Of a DNA stretch of 38,175 bases, positions 18,327 to 38,175 are shown piece after piece. This stretch comes from Patescibacteria group bacterium (lineage in GTDB: Bacteria; Patescibacteriota; Minisyncoccia; Phycocordibacterales; CAIRYW01), in NCBI GenBank assembly GCA_040390775.1, contig JAZJXR010000025.1:1-38175 (forward strand). The letters run 5' to 3'. A program made the translations under genes and the position numbers. The notes beneath the pieces are model-generated. The model worked only from the letters and a program-made list of their open reading frames with translations. It did not search any database and was not told the origin of the DNA. Every line of letters starts with the position of its first letter. The first letter of the stretch is position 1.

Positions 18327-18602
18327 TTGGCCATGGAATACCATAAACTACACAAAATGATGAAAGCAGAAATACGCAATCCTTCGAATGGCGTTTGGGT
18401 GCAAGATCCGCTCCAACCTTTGGAATCTTCTTTCGCCCGTCCAGCACTTTCTGGTAATAGTCTGATAGCAAAAGGAAGCAAAAAAGCTGTCGAAGCTATA
18501 AATAGGGCAGATGTAAAAATGTTTAAACTAAGATTCATACCTATACAATACATTAAACATATACAATATGCAAATAGATATCCACAGGTGTCAATATGCT
18601 AA
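18327..18602 (+). CDS. Doubtful ORF (91 aa) in the 285-nt gap after the giant gene
   Basis: TTG start (ATG at 18333). The last third looks like translated AT-rich non-coding DNA and carries regulatory-looking motifs. Confidence 0.2.
   Translation: MAMEYHKLHKMMKAEIRNPSNGVWVQDPLQPLESSFARPALSGNSLIAKGSKKAVEAINRADVKMFKLRFIPIQYIKHIQYANRYPQVSIC
18576..18589 (+). repeat. AGATATCCACAGGT element, copy 1 (DnaA-box-like core TATCCACAG)
   Basis: Identical 14-mer at 27018-27031, with a near copy AGATATCCCCA at 26461. Both exact copies lie in non-coding gaps. Confidence 0.5.
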
Positions 18603-25105: not shown

Positions 25106-25516
25106 TTGTCTAAAAACTTACAAAAAGGCTTGGCAAGCCTCATCGTATTGGCATCCCTCGCAAGCCCTGCGCTTGCTGTGGCAGAAGAAACGCCCACACC
25201 TCTATCAATCCCCGAACTGATATCAAAACTCGCCCTAGAGGCAAATTTGAGCCAAAGAGATGTGGCTGTGTTCAAAAAGATAGCTAGCTGTGAAAGCGGT
25301 ATGAGACAATTCGATGAAAACGGTAAACTGCTGCGCGGGCTCGTAGACGATCGAGATATCGGTATTATGCAGATCAATACCTTCTACCATGGTGCTCGGG
25401 CCAAAGAACTTGGCCTAAGCCTTTACAACAGCGAAGACAATATCCGATTCGGTGTGATGCTTTATAAAGACGGCCCAGAGAAGTTTTGGAGTGCATCCGA
25501 GCATTGCTGGGGATGA
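25106..25516 (+). CDS. Secreted lytic transglycosylase (SLT / lysozyme-like)
   Basis: TTG start. Signal peptide LASLIVLASLASPALA/VAEE. Motifs CESGMRQF..DIGIMQINTFYH resemble the catalytic Glu-Ser and GxMQ motifs of SLT domains. Confidence 0.6.
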   Translation: MSKNLQKGLASLIVLASLASPALAVAEETPTPLSIPELISKLALEANLSQRDVAVFKKIASCESGMRQFDENGKLLRGLVDDRDIGIMQINTFYHGARAKELGLSLYNSEDNIRFGVMLYKDGPEKFWSASEHCWG

Positions 25517-25517
25517 T

Positions 25518-25622
25518 ATAATCATTCTGCTGGTCAGCTCTAATTTGAACTAGAGCCAGGTAATGTGGCGGTGCAATAATCACTGGTCAACTAATAGCCT
25601 GTGGAAGTAATCACATAATCAG
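25518..25622 (+). repeat. Iteron-like TAATCA repeats (4 copies in 105 bp)
   Basis: ATAATCA at 25518-24, ATAATCAC at 25576-83, GTAATCAC at 25607-14, ATAATCAG at 25615-22. Confidence 0.45.
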
Positions 25623-25636
25623 CCACGGCCAGCTTT

Positions 25637-25645
25637 TGATATAAT
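25637..25645 (+). promoter_or_regulatory. Extended -10 promoter TGaTATAAT inside the non-coding region
   Basis: Perfect TG-n-TATAAT. No long ORF lies downstream; a hairpin and a terminator follow. Confidence 0.35.
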
Positions 25646-25651
25646 ATCTCT

Positions 25652-25720
25652 ACCCTTGCATAGGTCGAATCATGCAAAGACGACGCAAAAATATCCCGTA
25701 CTCTGGGATATTTTTGTTTT
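25652..25720 (+). ncRNA. Candidate small RNA of about 70 nt (promoter to terminator unit)
   Basis: Predicted TSS about 7 nt after the TATAAT. Hairpin 1 is TTGCAT (25656-61) / ATGCAA (25672-77). Hairpin 2 is the 12-bp terminator stem plus TTTT. Only a 16-codon ORF lies inside. Confidence 0.2.
25686..25720. terminator. Intrinsic terminator, possibly bidirectional, ending the late/lysis transcription unit
   Basis: CAAAAATATCCC gtactct GGGATATTTTTG forms a 12-bp stem with a 7-nt loop. An A tract lies 5' and TTTT lies 3'. Confidence 0.5.
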
Positions 25721-25726
25721 AGGCAC

Positions 25727-25768
25727 TGTGGATAACGAGTGGATATTACGGATGATTTTTGTGGAAAA
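25727..25768. promoter_or_regulatory. DnaA-box cluster (putative origin core)
   Basis: TGTGGATAA at 25727-35 is the perfect complement of TTATCCACA. AGTGGATAT (25738-46) and TGTGGAAAA (25760-68) share its orientation. Opposite-orientation TCATCCCCA (25830-38) and TTATCCCCT (25863-71) lie beyond an AT-rich tract. Confidence 0.5.
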
Positions 25769-25839
25769 AGCTGTTGGTAAACTGTGATTAAAAAGTAGAT
25801 AACTTGTCCTAAAATTAAAAAGGTCAAAATCATCCCCAG

Positions 25840-25852
25840 ATCTGTCACAGAT
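25840..25852. promoter_or_regulatory. Palindrome ATCTGT-c-ACAGAT (operator candidate)
   Basis: 6+1+6 perfect inverted repeat about 55-70 nt upstream of the first early gene. Confidence 0.3.
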
Positions 25853-25875
25853 TATTAGTAAGTTATCCCCTGTTT

Positions 25876-25911
25876 TTGACATTTGACTTATATACATCAT
25901 TAAATTATGAT
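25876..25911 (+). promoter_or_regulatory. Early promoter candidate (tandem TTGAC motifs)
   Basis: TTGACA at 25876-81 and TTGACT at 25883-88. TTGACT, a 17-nt spacer, then TATGAT (25906-11). This would favour ATG 25922 as the start codon. Confidence 0.35.
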
Positions 25912-26494
25912 GGGGAGAATTATGGACAAAAACACCAGAATTGATCATGTGAATATGAGGAGAATTGCTAATGTACTTGAGAATTTTTCAAAAGAAATTA
26001 ATTGTTCTTATGAAGAATTAGTGAGTAAAAATAGGAGATCAGATATGGTACGAGCTAGAGCAACGCTTACTTTGGCTTGTTTGAAAGAAGGATTTTCATA
26101 TTCCAGTATTGCAAAATTTCTTAATAGAGATCATACAACCATCATGTACTTAGCCAATGCGTACAAAGATGATTTTTCAATAAGAAGGATTGTGGCTGAA
26201 AAACCTATAAAAAAAATACTAAAACCTATAAAAGAACCAAGAGAGATCGAGCCCGGTGTACGCGTACCCCTAAACCATAGTATCTATAATGAAGTATATA
26301 TAAAATTTCAAGCAAGATGCGCTGTATGTAATTTTGACGAAGTCACAGAGGTTCATCATATAATCCCAGTGAAATTAGGTGGTTCAAACGATATAGAGAA
26401 TTTGATACTTTTATGCCCGAATCATCATAAATTAGCTGATAAAGGTATGTTGAATATAAAAGATATCCCCAATTCATCCACGCCGTCCACATAG
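25907..26494 (+). CDS. DnaA domain IV (DnaA-box-binding HTH) fused to an HNH endonuclease
   Basis: RRSDMVRARATLTLACLKEGFSYSSIAKFLNRDHTTIMYLANAY matches the DnaA C-terminal signature, including RDHTT. The C-terminal CAVCNF..EVHHIIPVKLGGSNDIENLILLCPNHHKLAD is an HNH core. No AAA+ motifs. Alternative start at ATG 25922. Confidence 0.7.
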   Translation: MMGRIMDKNTRIDHVNMRRIANVLENFSKEINCSYEELVSKNRRSDMVRARATLTLACLKEGFSYSSIAKFLNRDHTTIMYLANAYKDDFSIRRIVAEKPIKKILKPIKEPREIEPGVRVPLNHSIYNEVYIKFQARCAVCNFDEVTEVHHIIPVKLGGSNDIENLILLCPNHHKLADKGMLNIKDIPNSSTPST

Positions 26495-26581
26495 CATTCT
26501 TCTTATTATTAAGTATTTATATATAAAAGATCTAGGGCGCTGGGGATAGGAAAAACTTGGCTTGCTCGATTTGACGTGGGG

Positions 26582-27017: not shown

Positions 27018-27031
27018 AGATATCCACAGGT
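27018..27031 (+). repeat. AGATATCCACAGGT element, copy 2
   Basis: Identical to 18576-18589. It begins 1 nt after the stop at 27014-16 and ends 5 nt before a -35 hexamer. Confidence 0.5.
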
Positions 27032-27880: not shown

Positions 27881-28438
27881 ATGTGGAATTCAACCTTTAA
27901 AACCAAATCATTTGATGAGATCGCTAAAGCGCGAAGAATCAAAGATGATAAAAATCGGGCCAACATTCTCAAAAATGGAATGACTACCTTCTACACAAAT
28001 CCTAGAAAGGCTCTTCGAAAGCACTCTACAGCCCCCACTGCGCGCTTAGAAAGGGCTCTCTGGGCGATCTTCTCCCTGTTTGTGAAGATACGCGACGGCT
28101 GGCGATGCTTTCTCTGTGGCAAGCGTTCTGTGGGCTCTGGCATGCATGCCGGACACTTCATCGAAGATGCTGTTGGTGGTGTGGCGCTCCGATACCACGA
28201 AATGAACGTGCACGCTGAATGTTCTTTCTGTAATCTATACCGAGAAGGCCACAAGGAAGCCTATGAAAAGAAAATGCTTGAGACATATGGCGAAGAAGCT
28301 GTACAAAAGCTAAAGGATCTAAAAAACACCACAATCTATGGCTTTGACTACAAAACTCAAACAGCCTATTACAAAGAGCAGGTATCAAACATGAAACTTC
28401 ACGGTCCATTATCATTTAACGAATCCATAGGATATTAA
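27881..28438 (+). CDS. ninG: NinG/Rap-like structure-specific (HNH-type) endonuclease
   Basis: LFVKIRDGWRCFLCGK....HAGHFIE....LRYHEMNVHAECSFCNLYREGH matches the NinG family core (IRxRD, C..C, GH, N..QC..CN). Confidence 0.7.
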   Translation: MWNSTFKTKSFDEIAKARRIKDDKNRANILKNGMTTFYTNPRKALRKHSTAPTARLERALWAIFSLFVKIRDGWRCFLCGKRSVGSGMHAGHFIEDAVGGVALRYHEMNVHAECSFCNLYREGHKEAYEKKMLETYGEEAVQKLKDLKNTTIYGFDYKTQTAYYKEQVSNMKLHGPLSFNESIGY

Positions 28439-33235: not shown

Positions 33236-33442
33236 ATGAGCGACGATTTATACAAACCATATATACCCAGCTTGGATCAAATATTTAGAAAGCACAATCA
33301 CTGGATGGATCTATACGCCGACAGGGATCACATACTTGCCATTACATTCGAGCGCGCTAAGGAGCTCGTGGATCAAAACATCTGGGAAACCGAAAAGAAG
33401 AAGTACTACGTGATGCTGCCTAAGATATGGCCAAAGAAATAA
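33236..33442 (+). CDS. Hypothetical protein (68 aa from ATG 33236)
   Basis: In frame with the TTG-initiated track ORF 33209. Confidence 0.5.
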   Translation: MSDDLYKPYIPSLDQIFRKHNHWMDLYADRDHILAITFERAKELVDQNIWETEKKKYYVMLPKIWPKK

Positions 33443-33789
33443 GATTCAAGATAGAGGGCCTCGTACCAAGTAAAAAGAATAAAGTGCGCCATAGATTCGG
33501 TGGTGGAGGATTCTATGATCCAGAAACTCGGCGTGAGATAGATTGGCTCGTGATGCAGCTACGCTCCAAGGCCCCAAAAGAGACATTTAAGTGCGAAATG
33601 GAGGTACACACTGAAATACATACTAACCGGCGCCAAGACGGCGACAATGCCCATACAACCATCCTAGACTGCCTCCAAAGCGCCGGGATCATCAAGAATG
33701 ACAAAGATATCATCCGAGGCTCATGGGAGCGCAAAACTGTAAAAACTATCGAAGAGTGCAAAGTGTGGATAACTATTTGCTTGCTATAA
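33427..33789 (+). CDS. rusA: RusA-like Holliday junction resolvase
   Basis: LVPSKKNK near the N-terminus. NRRQDGDNAHTTILDCLQSAGIIKNDKDI matches the RusA acidic core ([29 protein letters not shown]). Confidence 0.65.
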   Translation: MAKEIRFKIEGLVPSKKNKVRHRFGGGGFYDPETRREIDWLVMQLRSKAPKETFKCEMEVHTEIHTNRRQDGDNAHTTILDCLQSAGIIKNDKDIIRGSWERKTVKTIEECKVWITICLL

Positions 33790-34762: not shown

Positions 34763-36319
34763 ATGGCTGGAAAATCAAAAGTAATGAAGACAGGAGACGA
34801 AGCGCGAAGCAAGATCATGCAGGGAGTAGACCTGTACGCGGATGCTATCAAAATGACTCTTGGCCCGTGGGGCCAGAATGCCATTATGGGTATCCGCGGC
34901 GGCGATCCAGAGATCACAAACGATGGCAAAAAGATCGGAGACAATATCTCATCAAAGGATGAGCTTGTAGATCTCGGCATCCGCGCTATCCGTGGTGGTG
35001 TCAAAAAGACCAATGAAGAAATTGGTGACATGAGCTCGACTACTACAACTCTGATCCAATCTATCACCAAAGCTGTAATCAAAATGATGCCGAAAGGAGA
35101 TGTAGTAGCTGGCAAAAAGAGCATCATGCAGATACACAAACAGCTTGATGATGAATGTATCGACGTGATTGGGAAGCTTGAAGCGATGGCCGAAAACATT
35201 ACAACCGAAGAAGAGCTTGTCGGTGTGGTGCGCGCTTCCGTGGAAGATGAGAATTTGGCCGAAATGATTGGCAAGATGCAATGGAAAATCGGATCGGAAG
35301 GATCCATCATTCCAGAAGAAGTGAACGATGCCGAAACGACTATCGAGAGAATCAATGGTATCCGAATAGATAATGGATTCGGAACATCAAGCATCGTGAA
35401 TAATCTTGAGAAGCAAAGCTTAGAAATAAACGATGTGCGAATTATACTCACCAACTCTACATTCCAGAATCTGCAGCCAGTATTAAAATTGCTCGAGCAA
35501 ATAGTGAAGCTACGTAATAAAGATGGATCAACTGCTCGCGTGGCTATCCTTGGTCGAGGCTTTTCTGAAAATGCTATTAAAGCTTGTATGAAGAATCACG
35601 AAAATGGCTTCCAAGTATTTCCTATTAACGCTCCATATTTGAATCAGAATCAAATGCTGAAAGACATGGCAGCTGTGCTCGGCGGGACTTTCTTCAACGT
35701 GGAAGAGCGCGATCTCGAGGATATGCAGATGTCTGACGTAGGCTTTGCAGAAAAGATATCAGCAAGTAGATGGAGCGCGATATTTACTGGCACAGCGGAT
35801 CAAGAAGCGGCAGCGAGGATCTGTGGACGAGCGGAAGATCTTAAAAAGGAAATGGAGGGCGAGTCATCACTCTTCGAAAAGAAGCACATCCAAGCCAGAA
35901 TCGCACAACTAGAAAATGGCTTCGCTATCATCAAGGTAGGCGGATTGACGGAGCAGAACAGAAAATATAAGCGAGATAAGATAGAAGATGCTGTCAGCAC
36001 GGCCAGATTAGCTCTACAAGAAGGTGTGGTGCCCGGAGCTGGACTTGCGCTCAAGGCCGTGGCGGATGAACTGCCAGAAACAAGTGTGCTCAAAAAAGCC
36101 CTCAAAGTGCCCTACGAGCAAATCATGGCCAATGCTGGCGAAGACTTCACAGTAGAGCCATGGGTGAAGGATTCCTTCAAGAGCCTGCGCATCTCTATTC
36201 GAAACGCTATAGAGACGGCGAAAGATCTCTCAACTGCAGCAATCGCTATCAACCACGAAAACGAATTGACACAATTCGTGGCTAAGACTCCACAACCAGA
36301 ATCAGAAGGTGTACAATAA
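34763..36319 (+). CDS. groEL: GroEL-type (group I-like) chaperonin, divergent, 518 aa
   Basis: Collinear with GroEL by eye: TLGPWGQNAIM (TLGPKGRNVVL), ITNDGKKIG (ITKDGVSVA), GDMSSTTTTL (GDGTTTATVL), ARIAQLENGFAIIKVGGLTEQNRKYKRDKIEDAVSTARLALQEGVVPGAGLAL ([53 protein letters not shown]). No GGM tail. Confidence 0.85.
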   Translation: MAGKSKVMKTGDEARSKIMQGVDLYADAIKMTLGPWGQNAIMGIRGGDPEITNDGKKIGDNISSKDELVDLGIRAIRGGVKKTNEEIGDMSSTTTTLIQSITKAVIKMMPKGDVVAGKKSIMQIHKQLDDECIDVIGKLEAMAENITTEEELVGVVRASVEDENLAEMIGKMQWKIGSEGSIIPEEVNDAETTIERINGIRIDNGFGTSSIVNNLEKQSLEINDVRIILTNSTFQNLQPVLKLLEQIVKLRNKDGSTARVAILGRGFSENAIKACMKNHENGFQVFPINAPYLNQNQMLKDMAAVLGGTFFNVEERDLEDMQMSDVGFAEKISASRWSAIFTGTADQEAAARICGRAEDLKKEMEGESSLFEKKHIQARIAQLENGFAIIKVGGLTEQNRKYKRDKIEDAVSTARLALQEGVVPGAGLALKAVADELPETSVLKKALKVPYEQIMANAGEDFTVEPWVKDSFKSLRISIRNAIETAKDLSTAAIAINHENELTQFVAKTPQPESEGVQ

Positions 36320-36859: not shown

Positions 36860-37333
36860 ATGAAAACAAAGACTAAAAAAATTGAAACGTCTAAAAAGAA
36901 AAGCAAAAAACATCAGATAGAGGATATCACTGATATTTTATCGGAAAGGCAAGCGCTCTTCGCTATTCTGTATACCACTGATAAAACATGCTTTGGCAAT
37001 GCTACTTTGGCATACAAGCGTGCATATAATTTAAAAGATTCGCAGTACAACGCGGCAGGGGTTTCTGCTTATCATCTCCTAAGAAATCCTAAAATGCAGG
37101 CATTTATAAAGAAATTTCTGCAAGATCGCTTCAATAGCGCCTCTATTGATAATGAAATATCAAAAGTGGCAACTCAAGATAGAGATCTCCATGCCAAGAT
37201 GCGCGCTATAGAAGAATTTAATAAATTAAAACAGCGAATCACGGATACTCCGATCACTATCAATATGCCTAGCCCTCTTTTAAATGCCCTATTCCATAAC
37301 AACCGCAACGCGAAAGCTAGCGCAGCTAAATAA
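36860..37333 (+). CDS. terS: Terminase small subunit
   Basis: Lys-rich N-terminus followed by the HTH-like LSERQALFAILYTTDKTCFGNATLAYKRAY..AAGVSAYHLLRNPKMQAFI typical of small terminases. Lies directly upstream of terL and overlaps it. Confidence 0.6.
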   Translation: MKTKTKKIETSKKKSKKHQIEDITDILSERQALFAILYTTDKTCFGNATLAYKRAYNLKDSQYNAAGVSAYHLLRNPKMQAFIKKFLQDRFNSASIDNEISKVATQDRDLHAKMRAIEEFNKLKQRITDTPITINMPSPLLNALFHNNRNAKASAAK

Positions 37334-38175
37334 GAGAATCCGCGCAACGCCAGGGGGAACATCTGCGGGCAAGACTATTTCTTGGCTCTCAATTCTGATT
37401 CATCTGGCCCAAAGCGACAAAACACCCACAACGACAAGCATCGTATCGGAATCATTTCCCCATCTCGCCCGCGGCGCTGAAAAAGATTTCCTTTCCATTC
37501 TCAAAGAACAGAATTACTATCAAGAAAAAAGATGGAATAGGACTATCCATACATACACGTTTGAGACTGGCAGCAAAATAGAATTCTTTAGTGTAGATCA
37601 GCCATCAAAAGTGCGCGGGCCAAGGCGTGACCGGCTATTCATAAATGAGGCCAATAACGTAGATTATGAGACATTCGAACAGCTGGAAATTCGTACCAAA
37701 GAATTCATCGCCCTTGACTGGAATCCTACGAATGAATTTTGGTATTACACTGAAATCCAAGGGCGCCGAGACGATACGGATGAATGCGTGCTTACATATC
37801 TTGATAATGAAGCGCTGGATCCAGCCATTATTGCTACGATTGAAATGCGAAGGAATCGCAAAGGCTGGTGGCAAGTGTACGGCCTTGGCCAGCTCGGCGA
37901 AGTGGAAGGCAAGATCTATAAAGATTGGCAGATTATTGAAGAAATACCGCATGAAGCGCGCCTTGAGCGCTATGGCCTAGACTTTGGATACTCTAATGAT
38001 CCGACAGCCATTACCGCCATTTATTACTACAACGGAGGCTATATCCTCGACGAAATTTGTTTCCTCAAGGGACTTTCGAATAAGCAGATCGCTGATACTT
38101 TGCTTGCCGTAAAAGATGCTCTTGTGATTGCCGATTCAGCCGAGCCGAAATCTATCGATGAAATTAGAAGCTATG
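37284..38175 (+). CDS. terL: Terminase large subunit, 5' part (ATPase domain), open at the window end
   Basis: ATG 37284 immediately follows in-frame TAA 37281-83. Walker A is GGTSAGKT (37353-76), DRLFINEA is Walker B-like, and YGLDFGYSNDPTA marks the start of the nuclease domain. There is no stop before base 38175. It is missing from the ORF track because it runs off the end. Confidence 0.85.
   Translation, partial: MPYSITTATRKLAQLNKRIRATPGGTSAGKTISWLSILIHLAQSDKTPTTTSIVSESFPHLARGAEKDFLSILKEQNYYQEKRWNRTIHTYTFETGSKIEFFSVDQPSKVRGPRRDRLFINEANNVDYETFEQLEIRTKEFIALDWNPTNEFWYYTEIQGRRDDTDECVLTYLDNEALDPAIIATIEMRRNRKGWWQVYGLGQLGEVEGKIYKDWQIIEEIPHEARLERYGLDFGYSNDPTAITAIYYYNGGYILDEICFLKGLSNKQIADTLLAVKDALVIADSAEPKSIDEIRSY

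Follow-up and report, generated by a model that had tools for sequence, protein, structure and literature searches.

A DnaA domain IV-like reader fused to an HNH nuclease in origin-like DNA of a phage genome: a possible origin-targeting homing-type endonuclease

What is a gene doing in the middle of origin-like DNA when its product joins the DNA-binding domain of DnaA to a nuclease? This question is raised by a contig of 38,175 bp (JAZJXR010000025.1; this whole stretch is called the window below), which is itself binned as a Patescibacteria metagenome-assembled genome (MAG). An open reading frame (ORF) in it, at 25907–26494, encodes a DnaA domain IV-like helix-turn-helix (HTH) domain followed by an HNH nuclease domain. 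The reading that we favor, to which we give about an even chance, is that the gene is a small mobile homing-type HNH endonuclease, targeted by DnaA domain IV to DnaA-box arrays in DnaA-dependent origins. The features of the gene and its product are as follows.

25907–26494, plus strand: the DnaA domain IV–HNH gene; longest ORF of 195 aa, probable product of 190 aa from 25922
25883–25911, plus strand: promoter-like site, TTGACT-17-TATGAT, 10 of 12 matches
25967–26200, plus strand: DnaA domain IV-like HTH (Pfam match at residues 21–81; modeled helical domain at about residues 8–98)
26201–26281, plus strand: linker, residues 99–125, poorly conserved and of low model confidence
26282–26455, plus strand: HNH (beta-beta-alpha-metal) nuclease domain, from Pfam and conserved residues

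The translation of the ORF is the 195-aa protein quoted in an earlier note on this DNA, which had proposed a fusion of DnaA domain IV to an HNH nuclease with no AAA+ module. Translation likely starts at ATG 25922, which is preceded by a GGAG ribosome-binding site. The promoter-like site upstream implies this start by its position, and the same start is used in the NCBI record (MES2060224.1, 190 aa, "helix-turn-helix domain-containing protein", Patescibacteria group MAG). The profile search that had been suggested as a check returned two significant and non-overlapping Pfam matches above the curated cut-offs, Bac_DnaA_C and HNH; HNH_2 was also above its cut-off. The generic HTH families HTH_38, HTH_40, and HTH_23 scored under their Pfam cut-offs. 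Neither the AAA+ domain III (Bac_DnaA, PF00308) nor the N-terminal domain I gave a Pfam match, and a protein of 195 aa is too short for an AAA+ module. A DnaA paralog or an Hda-like protein was rejected because this module is absent. PHROGs matched the HNH part alone, and the matches included families labeled "homing endonuclease". The AlphaFold model, calculated from the family alignment, has a predicted local distance difference test (pLDDT) value of 85.6 and consists of two confident domains and a low-confidence linker (residues 100–125). With the two Pfam matches, the structural match, and the complete catalytic residues described below, the proposed fusion without AAA+ is borne out.

The N-terminal domain matches PF08299 (Bac_DnaA_C) at residues 21–81 with 39.8 bits (cut-off 31.5) and covers profile positions 2–64 of 69. 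A profile of 65 family members found the E. coli DnaA domain IV in complex with a DnaA box (1J1V) over the whole domain (E = 1.3e-14), and other DnaA structures came next. In the model, pLDDT is 90–98 across residues 21–100. The superposition on DNA-bound DnaA domain IV that the earlier note had called for gave a match: the modeled domain superposes on the DNA-binding domain of M. tuberculosis DnaA with DNA (3PVP) with a template modeling (TM) score of 0.73 and a root mean square deviation of 1.8 Å over 84 columns, and on 1J1V with a TM score of 0.68. A generic HTH, such as sigma-70 region 4 or LuxR, was ruled out, since no DNA-binding family other than Bac_DnaA_C exceeds its cut-off and the top PDB matches are DnaA. 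The domain had been placed at residues 40–95; it is present, but its extent is about residues 8–98.

When the 1J1V chain is numbered as index + 373, residues R43, R51, D75, H76, and T77 of the window protein are equivalent to R399, R407, D433, H434, and T435 of E. coli DnaA. R43 and H76 are invariant in the 22 closest sequences, and D75 and T77 are conserved. In E. coli DnaA, R399, P423, D433, H434, T435, and H439 reportedly contact the DNA. Two of these positions diverge in the window protein, where Y81 stands for H439 (His in most relatives) and S66 stands for P423. This pattern of residues predicts a specificity that is DnaA-box-like but may be shifted. The protein has the whole of DnaA domain IV, including the basic-loop Arg (R399) and the D-H-T signature (D433, H434, and T435), whereas it is detached from DnaA domains I–III and has no AAA+ and no helicase-interaction domain. 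Its identity to domain IV of the Patescibacteria DnaA that adjoins a homolog is only about 34–36%; therefore, the capture of this domain was not recent.

The HNH domain matches PF01844 at residues 138–175 with 40.6 bits (cut-off 21.4). The window protein has a CCCH zinc site (C138, C141, C170, and H173), an H150-H151 pair, N165, N172, H174, and D178. In the 65-member alignment, C138, C141, C170, and H174 are invariant, and conservation is 90% or higher at R51, H76, H150, H151, N165, L169, P171, N172, H173, and G180. Across the family, position 178 holds either Asp or His. The HNH core had been described as canonical, and the alignment agrees: the zinc, general-base His, Asn, and metal-ligand positions are all conserved in the 65 sequences. 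Among solved structures, the HNH domain comes closest in sequence to the endonuclease (En) domain of a group II intron maturase (6ME0, E = 3e-6); Cas8-HNH and IscB come next. The core alignment with the closest one reads TEVHHIIPvklGGSnDieNLiLl against TEIHHILPkhkGGSdDLdNLvLi. Among the PDB fold matches, McrA, TagI, Cap5, and IscB follow the DnaA domains and fit the HNH part. Group II intron En, IscB, and Cas8-HNH are single-strand-cutting HNH domains of mobile or RNA-guided systems. The window protein has a similar HNH core, but it has no reverse transcriptase and no RNA guide, and its targeting would instead fall to the protein HTH domain.

An exhaustive HMMER search of 1.84 billion representatives gave 2,438 matches. 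Approximately 70 of the best 150 are full length (160–200 aa, 25–49% identical, covering query residues roughly 20–190); members were counted as clusters at 50% identity, and 65 of the full-length members were aligned. Both Bac_DnaA_C (best E = 3.4e-21) and HNH are matched by 63 of these 65, and none of the family members carries a functional name. A word-index protein search returned the identical NCBI protein and HNH-only matches and nothing else, and tblastn of the window protein returned HNH-domain matches alone, in crAss-like and Lak phages. The architecture is undescribed in the literature searched (homing endonuclease/oriC/DnaA box/HNH; Bac_DnaA_C with HNH; DnaA domain IV with nuclease and phage). 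The earlier statement that no characterized example was known stands; however, the architecture is not unique, as approximately 70 clusters are found in metagenomes. The parts (DnaA domain IV, HNH, homing-type genes, and oriC elements) are known, and what appears to be new is their combination and, foremost, the origin niche.

Two related proteins lack the nuclease or stand beside it. The exhaustive search also found a 308-aa protein (P0082, E = 7e-31) with three tandem Bac_DnaA_C domains and no nuclease, apparently another stand-alone use of the DNA reader of DnaA. In locus L181, a DnaA_C-like paralog of 114 aa (897–1241) immediately precedes the DnaA_C-HNH gene. It shares 31% identity with the N-terminal domain of its neighbor, and its signature is degenerate, with VEESYVY in place of RDHTTI.

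The DNA around the gene has the following features.

25727–25802, minus strand: phased array of DnaA-box-like 9-mers in one orientation, the core of the densest cluster
25830–25896, plus strand: degenerate boxes in the opposite orientation, TCATCCCCA at 25830, TTATCCCCT at 25863, and TTATATACA at 25888
26463–26491, plus strand: three DnaA-box-like sites in the last 11 codons, ATATCCCCA, TCATCCACG, and CCGTCCACA
26495–26535, no strand: AT-rich stretch, 15% GC, the most AT-rich of the region, with TTC TTC TTA TTA TTA (bottom strand 3'-AAG AAG AAT AAT AAT-5')
25686–25716, no strand: perfect 12-bp inverted repeat, CAAAAATATCCC-7 nt-GGGATATTTTTG, terminator-like, located after the late/lysis operon, which ends at 25516, and before the array
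27018–27031, plus strand: exact 14-mer AGATATCCACAGGT (DnaA box plus GG), with a second copy at 18576–18589

Positions 25601–26000 contain 14 DnaA-box-like 9-mers (at most two mismatches), compared with an average of 1.7 per 400 bp over the genome and 6 in the next-best unrelated interval; this is the densest box cluster of the genome. The boxes of the array are located at 25727 (exact TTATCCACA), 25738, 25760, 25772, 25783, and 25794, in steps of approximately 11 bp. The degenerate boxes at 25830–25896 lie upstream of the promoter-like site and overlap it. An origin-like region had been placed to the left of the gene in the earlier note. This region is real, with its 14 boxes in 400 bp, but origin-like DNA lies on both sides of the gene rather than on the left alone.

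On the right side, the stretch at 26495–26535 is a candidate unwinding element that resembles DnaA-trios, although it is called no more than "BUS-like" here (BUS, basal unwinding system). The published BUS search rule consists of a box, a spacer of 0–16 bp, and at least three NAN trinucleotides (PMC8287927). The sequence at 26483–26535 and in relatives appears to follow this pattern, with a box, a trinucleotide run, and AT-rich DNA, and it resembles the native dnaA-dnaN origin of relatives that lack the gene. The region shares with the basal unwinding system of oriC (PMC6669920, PMC8287927) the phased boxes, one or more boxes with a trinucleotide run within a few bp, and AT-rich DNA. It differs in that a nuclease gene is located between the distal and proximal box groups, and its origin activity is putative. 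The array, the tail boxes, and the AT-rich stretch together look like an oriC-mimicking phage origin, which would be served by the host DnaA and would contain the nuclease gene midway. The location of origin-like DNA in and next to a gene is also reminiscent of iteron replicons. In lambda O and P2 A, the origin lies in or next to the initiator gene.

Each copy of the 14-mer AGATATCCACAGGT lies in an intergenic stretch, between a stop codon just before it and the gene that follows. The two may act as operators or as accessory DnaA sites, and the copy at 27018 may be an accessory box, perhaps of the origin. The arms of the hairpin at 25686–25716 (AAATATCCC / GGGATATTT) resemble DnaA half-boxes.

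The association between gene and boxes was examined in 13 independent full-length loci (the window, L001, L005, L006, L007, L009, L010, L089, L167, L169, L171, L179, and L181). The flank was defined as 300 bp upstream of the gene plus the interval from its last 75 bp to 150 bp beyond its end, and a box as a 9-mer with at most one mismatch. Boxes flank the gene in all 13 loci. The flanks contain 56 boxes in 6,701 bp (8.4 per kb), and the remainder contains 60 in 145,518 bp (0.41 per kb), which is a 20-fold enrichment (binomial P = 4e-44; P = 2e-37 without the chromosomal locus). Composition-shuffled flanks gave an expectation of 2.25 ± 1.4 boxes and a maximum of 7. Within the gene bodies so delimited, no boxes were found in any of the 13 loci. 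The spacing between boxes on the same strand peaks at 11 bp and then at 12, 22, and 33 bp, and in most loci a box is located 7–44 bp upstream of the start codon.

The C-terminal tails of the proteins are translations of boxes in different frames (LST, YPH/YPQ, IHx), and the peptide is not conserved across the family. Therefore, the constraint acts on the DNA and not on the peptide. In many loci, the stop codon is followed by a short G/C spacer, then by a run of trinucleotides (TAATAGTAATAG, CTACTACTACTA, and, in the window, TTCTTCTTATTATTA), and finally by AT-rich DNA. The family gene often ends in 3–6 consecutive in-frame stop codons, as in L001 (10562–10576, TAA TAG TAA TAG TAA), L005, L089, L167, L169, and L171. 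The ORF end of the L001 type runs into the TAA/TAG trinucleotide run of the origin, and this run is also present in the gene-less origins L172, L175, and L177.

A chromosomal copy of the gene permits a comparison of occupied and empty sites. The closest homolog (P0019, 47% identical) is found on four contigs in the order rnpA-yidD-yidC-jag, followed by dnaA-gene-dnaN. The interval between dnaA and dnaN is the usual site of the bacterial origin. Relatives without the gene have the same synteny (L172, L175/L176, and L177/L178), and their DnaA proteins are 92, 90, and 86% identical to that of L001. Between dnaA and dnaN there are 810 bp in L001, which carries the gene, and 202–213 bp in L172, L175, and L177, which lack it. 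The gene-less spacers end in tandem boxes, TAGTAATAGTAA, and TTTATATATATATG (the final ATG is the dnaN start), and the same elements abut the 3' end of the gene in L001. Since these elements occur in gene-less and occupied spacers alike, the unit of box, trinucleotide run, and AT-rich DNA is taken as the native origin of these Patescibacteria, and because the gene-less relatives possess this unit, the gene is a lineage-specific insertion of approximately 600 bp within the origin. The chromosomal copy and the phage copy L007 resemble each other in DNA over the 50 bp that precede the start codon and over the tail with its boxes. In B. subtilis, the origin still works when as much as 462 bp separates its distal and proximal DnaA-box sub-regions (PMC6669920), so an insertion between the sub-regions is plausibly tolerated.

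The locus L087 (CAYSXR010000018.1), named "uncultured Gammaproteobacteria", shares its dnaA-gene-dnaN locus with L088, which carries a Saccharibacteria label, and the DnaA relatives of L087 are named Paceibacteria or Nomurabacteria. These conflicting names indicate that the taxonomic labels of these MAG contigs are unreliable.

Copies at the dnaA-dnaN locus are L001–L004, L087, and L088. The other copies with informative flanks are located on phage-like contigs or integrase-bearing elements, and neither dnaA nor dnaN was found near any of them; L181 is a 2-kb contig and is uninformative on context. A scan of 185,579 species-representative genomes, using a 22-sequence alignment and narrow peptide patterns, gave three full-length copies, of which two are at the dnaA-dnaN locus and one is phage-like (L089). 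The position of the gene in phage-like DNA varies. In the window, L179, L167, and L169, it follows the lysis genes and heads a rightward operon. In L007, it is directly upstream of TerS-TerL-portal, with 128 bp to the first ATG of the next ORF (6656) and 176 bp to the TerS homology (6704), and in L171 it is 1.7 kb upstream of TerL. The GC content of the gene is lower than that of its locus in 11 of 11 loci. For the window gene, it is 33.7% against 43.9% in the rest of the genome, the second lowest among 55 ORFs.

Boxes also occur without the gene. Among 120 IMG/VR stretches with a phased box pair (L215–L334), 60 are clusters of at least four boxes (4–13 within 500 bp). As half of these stretches are true clusters, DnaA-box clusters seem to be common in phage genomes generally. 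Neither the gene nor a dnaA or dnaN homolog was found at any of the 60 sampled IMG/VR clusters. The gene thus always brings a cluster (13 of 13), while clusters rarely bring the gene (0 of 60). Relatives of the lysin were absent from IMG/VR; in metagenomes they gave 14 loci, of which 7 extended far enough downstream to be examined, and both the gene and the boxes are missing from these 7. Relatives of the L007 TerL (17 loci, 43–51% identity) likewise have neither at the corresponding place. These TerL and lysin relatives are too distant to serve as true empty alleles.

The homing-type reading brings these results together. Its basis is the architecture with its conserved residues, the boxes that flank the gene, the chromosomal empty sites, the low GC content, the varied boundaries of the module, the box clusters without the gene, the homology between phage and chromosomal flanks, and an HNH domain like the En domain of a mobile element. 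We infer from these that the protein would bind DnaA boxes, cleave DNA, and home, and that the flanking DNA would serve as an origin. The N-terminal domain would bind DnaA boxes in a gene-less origin, either that of a competitor phage or the host oriC. The HNH domain, tethered by a linker of approximately 27 residues (99–125), would nick or cut nearby, and repair from the gene-bearing copy would introduce the gene, together with the boxes beside it, into the origin that was cut. The origin could tolerate the insert of approximately 600 bp, as distal and proximal box sub-regions can act at a distance.

Phage free-standing HNH homing endonucleases, such as the T4 Mob proteins and I-HmuI-like enzymes, offer the nearest comparison. 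As in those enzymes, a small ORF located between genes, with its own promoter-like signal, encodes an HNH domain and a sequence-specific DNA-binding module. The gene is also AT-richer than the genome and sporadic, and occupied and empty sites are found among close relatives of L001. In contrast, targeting here would rely on the DNA reader of DnaA, this DNA-binding domain occupies the N-terminal half, and the gene would have its home in a replication origin, whereas the home of the known enzymes is a conserved protein-coding or RNA gene.

Several observations weigh against a homing-type nuclease. We found no pair of phages that differ by this gene only. Together with the distant TerL and lysin relatives, which have neither gene nor boxes, this means that both could travel as one functional module, in place of an invasion of existing boxes by the gene. 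Origins that carry the gene retain many good consensus boxes to its left and right, which the nuclease would have to spare to avoid self-cleavage. Only one chromosomal lineage was found among the 185,579 species representatives, which is few for a universal target, although the peptide patterns were narrow. Finally, almost all of the 65 members retain intact nuclease residues, which is consistent with sustained selection, and a purely selfish gene would need continual transfer to maintain them.

The main rival, which we consider doubtful, is that the protein is a working part of the phage replicon and acts there as an origin-specific nickase, as an initiator, or as a regulator. A nick at its own box iterons would prime rolling-circle replication or a theta-to-sigma switch, or the protein would modulate the host DnaA, and the gene, its boxes, and the AT-rich element would form a portable origin module comparable to lambda O/ori and P2 A/ori. 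This explanation accounts well for a phage that has no recognizable initiator, helicase, primase, or polymerase and that carries the gene at its densest box cluster in an iteron-like layout, with phased repeats upstream, repeats inside the 3' end, and an AT-rich stretch. It is also consistent with the co-occurrence of gene and boxes in 13 of 13 loci and the lack of both in the TerL- or lysin-related phages, with the catalytic residues kept across 65 diverged members, and with the box 7–44 bp before most start codons, which suggests regulation by a box-binding protein. However, the protein lacks DnaA domains I and III, which are used for DNA melting and helicase recruitment, and all 60 sampled phage box clusters do without the gene. 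An intact copy in one bacterial oriC, with close relatives lacking it, points to mobility rather than phage replication, and the composition of the gene is atypical in every genome. To our knowledge, no HNH-type replication initiator has been reported. A more specific version, in which the portable module contains a new type of initiator whose DnaA box reader directs an HNH nickase to an oriC-like origin so that a phage devoid of other replication genes begins, or changes over to, nick-primed replication with host enzymes only, is rather unlikely in our estimation; such a module could recombine into a bacterial oriC. The protein may alternatively be a weapon for host takeover or competition, made early to cut or block the host oriC or the origin of a co-infecting phage and to free DnaA and the replisome. 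We think this unlikely. It overlaps with the homing model, as the oriC insertion would be a rare by-product of repair. The predicted target, the boxes of the host origin, would suit such a weapon, as would the homology of the flanks of the host oriC copy to those of the phage copy and the position of the window gene as the first past the late-operon terminator with its own promoter-like site. The same boxes, however, are present in the origin-like DNA of the phage itself, which would also be a target, and the L007 gene, which closes the early region beside TerS, is not the first early gene.

Two further explanations retain little probability. A packaging HNH of the HK97 gp74 type would aid the terminase in cutting concatemers at a box-marked cos site, and the proximity of the gene to the terminase genes in L007 (128–176 bp upstream of TerS-TerL-portal) and L171 (1.7 kb upstream of TerL) is what recommends it; direct adjacency was seen in L007 only. 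Both proteins are phage HNH proteins, but gp74-type proteins are single-domain, whereas two domains are present here. HNH-dependent packaging is associated with HK97-type Terminase_1 enzymes. The window TerL belongs to Terminase_3/Terminase_3C, the window gene and TerS (36860) are 10.4 kb apart and separated by approximately 25 ORFs, the contig assembles as a circle with TerL running through the junction, and the oriC copy has no terminase nearby. For the window, a packaging HNH was rejected on the distance from TerS and the type of TerL, and for the family it seems hardly credible. A non-catalytic DnaA-box-binding repressor or DnaA competitor, in which the HNH would be a zinc-finger or dimerization scaffold, is also very improbable. 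Boxes overlap the promoter region of the gene itself in most loci, and relatives with DnaA_C only exist (P0082, with three repeats and no HNH, and the 114-aa paralog of L181), as a repressor would lead one to expect. Nevertheless, conservation reaches at least 90% at the general-base His and at the Asn, and position 178 is kept as Asp or His, on a par with the zinc ligands; a purely structural HNH would not be expected to show this conservation. The earlier note had offered a nickase or initiator, a DnaA competitor, and a homing or packaging nuclease as possible functions. The range is now narrowed toward an origin-resident homing-type nuclease and away from packaging.

If the protein is a homing-type nuclease, replication origins would be invaded by selfish genes in the same manner as rRNA and other conserved genes, and the invader would have borrowed the DNA reader of the initiator. 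It would be the first mobile nuclease resident in oriC, between dnaA and dnaN, and a natural DnaA-box-directed nuclease could serve as a probe or tool for origins. If it is instead an initiator, it would represent a categorically new class of replication initiator. The locus also points to phages, probably of Patescibacteria, that copy the host origin rather than encode replication proteins, and to phage-phage and phage-host conflict over origins.

The genome that carries the gene appears to be complete. The TerL ORF continues in frame across the 38175/1 junction (about 37330–38175 plus 1–260), without terminal overlap; therefore, the contig is a complete circular or circularly permuted phage genome. 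Its recognizable genes encode TerL (Terminase_3/3C), TerS, HAD_SAK_2, CHAP-like and SLT-like lysis proteins, NinG/Rap, RusA, and a GroEL-like chaperonin. Pfam or PHROG scans of 41 window ORFs returned no polymerase, primase, helicase, initiator, or integrase; many of the small ORFs gave no match of any kind. The earlier remark that the genome has no polymerase, primase, or helicase is consistent with these scans, although they do not prove an absence. A megablast search with 12 kb of the window found no relatives in INPHARED, and IMG/VR scans with the proteins of both genes neighboring the window gene found no match.

Several other genes of this phage merit mention. The GroEL-like chaperonin (518 aa, 34763–36319; phrog_5725, E = 2.8e-70; Cpn60_TCP1) is encoded in a phage of just 38 kb. 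Junction nucleases of both the NinG/Rap-like (27881–28438) and RusA-like (33427–33789) types are present, while a recombinase or replication protein is not recognizable. A HAD_SAK_2 protein (HAD domain of "Swiss Army Knife" RNA repair proteins, E = 4.6e-23) is encoded at 257–676, adjoining TerL. Its coding sequence contains three DnaA-box-like sites on the same strand (436, 478, which is exact, and 517), approximately 40 bp apart, which form a second small box cluster.

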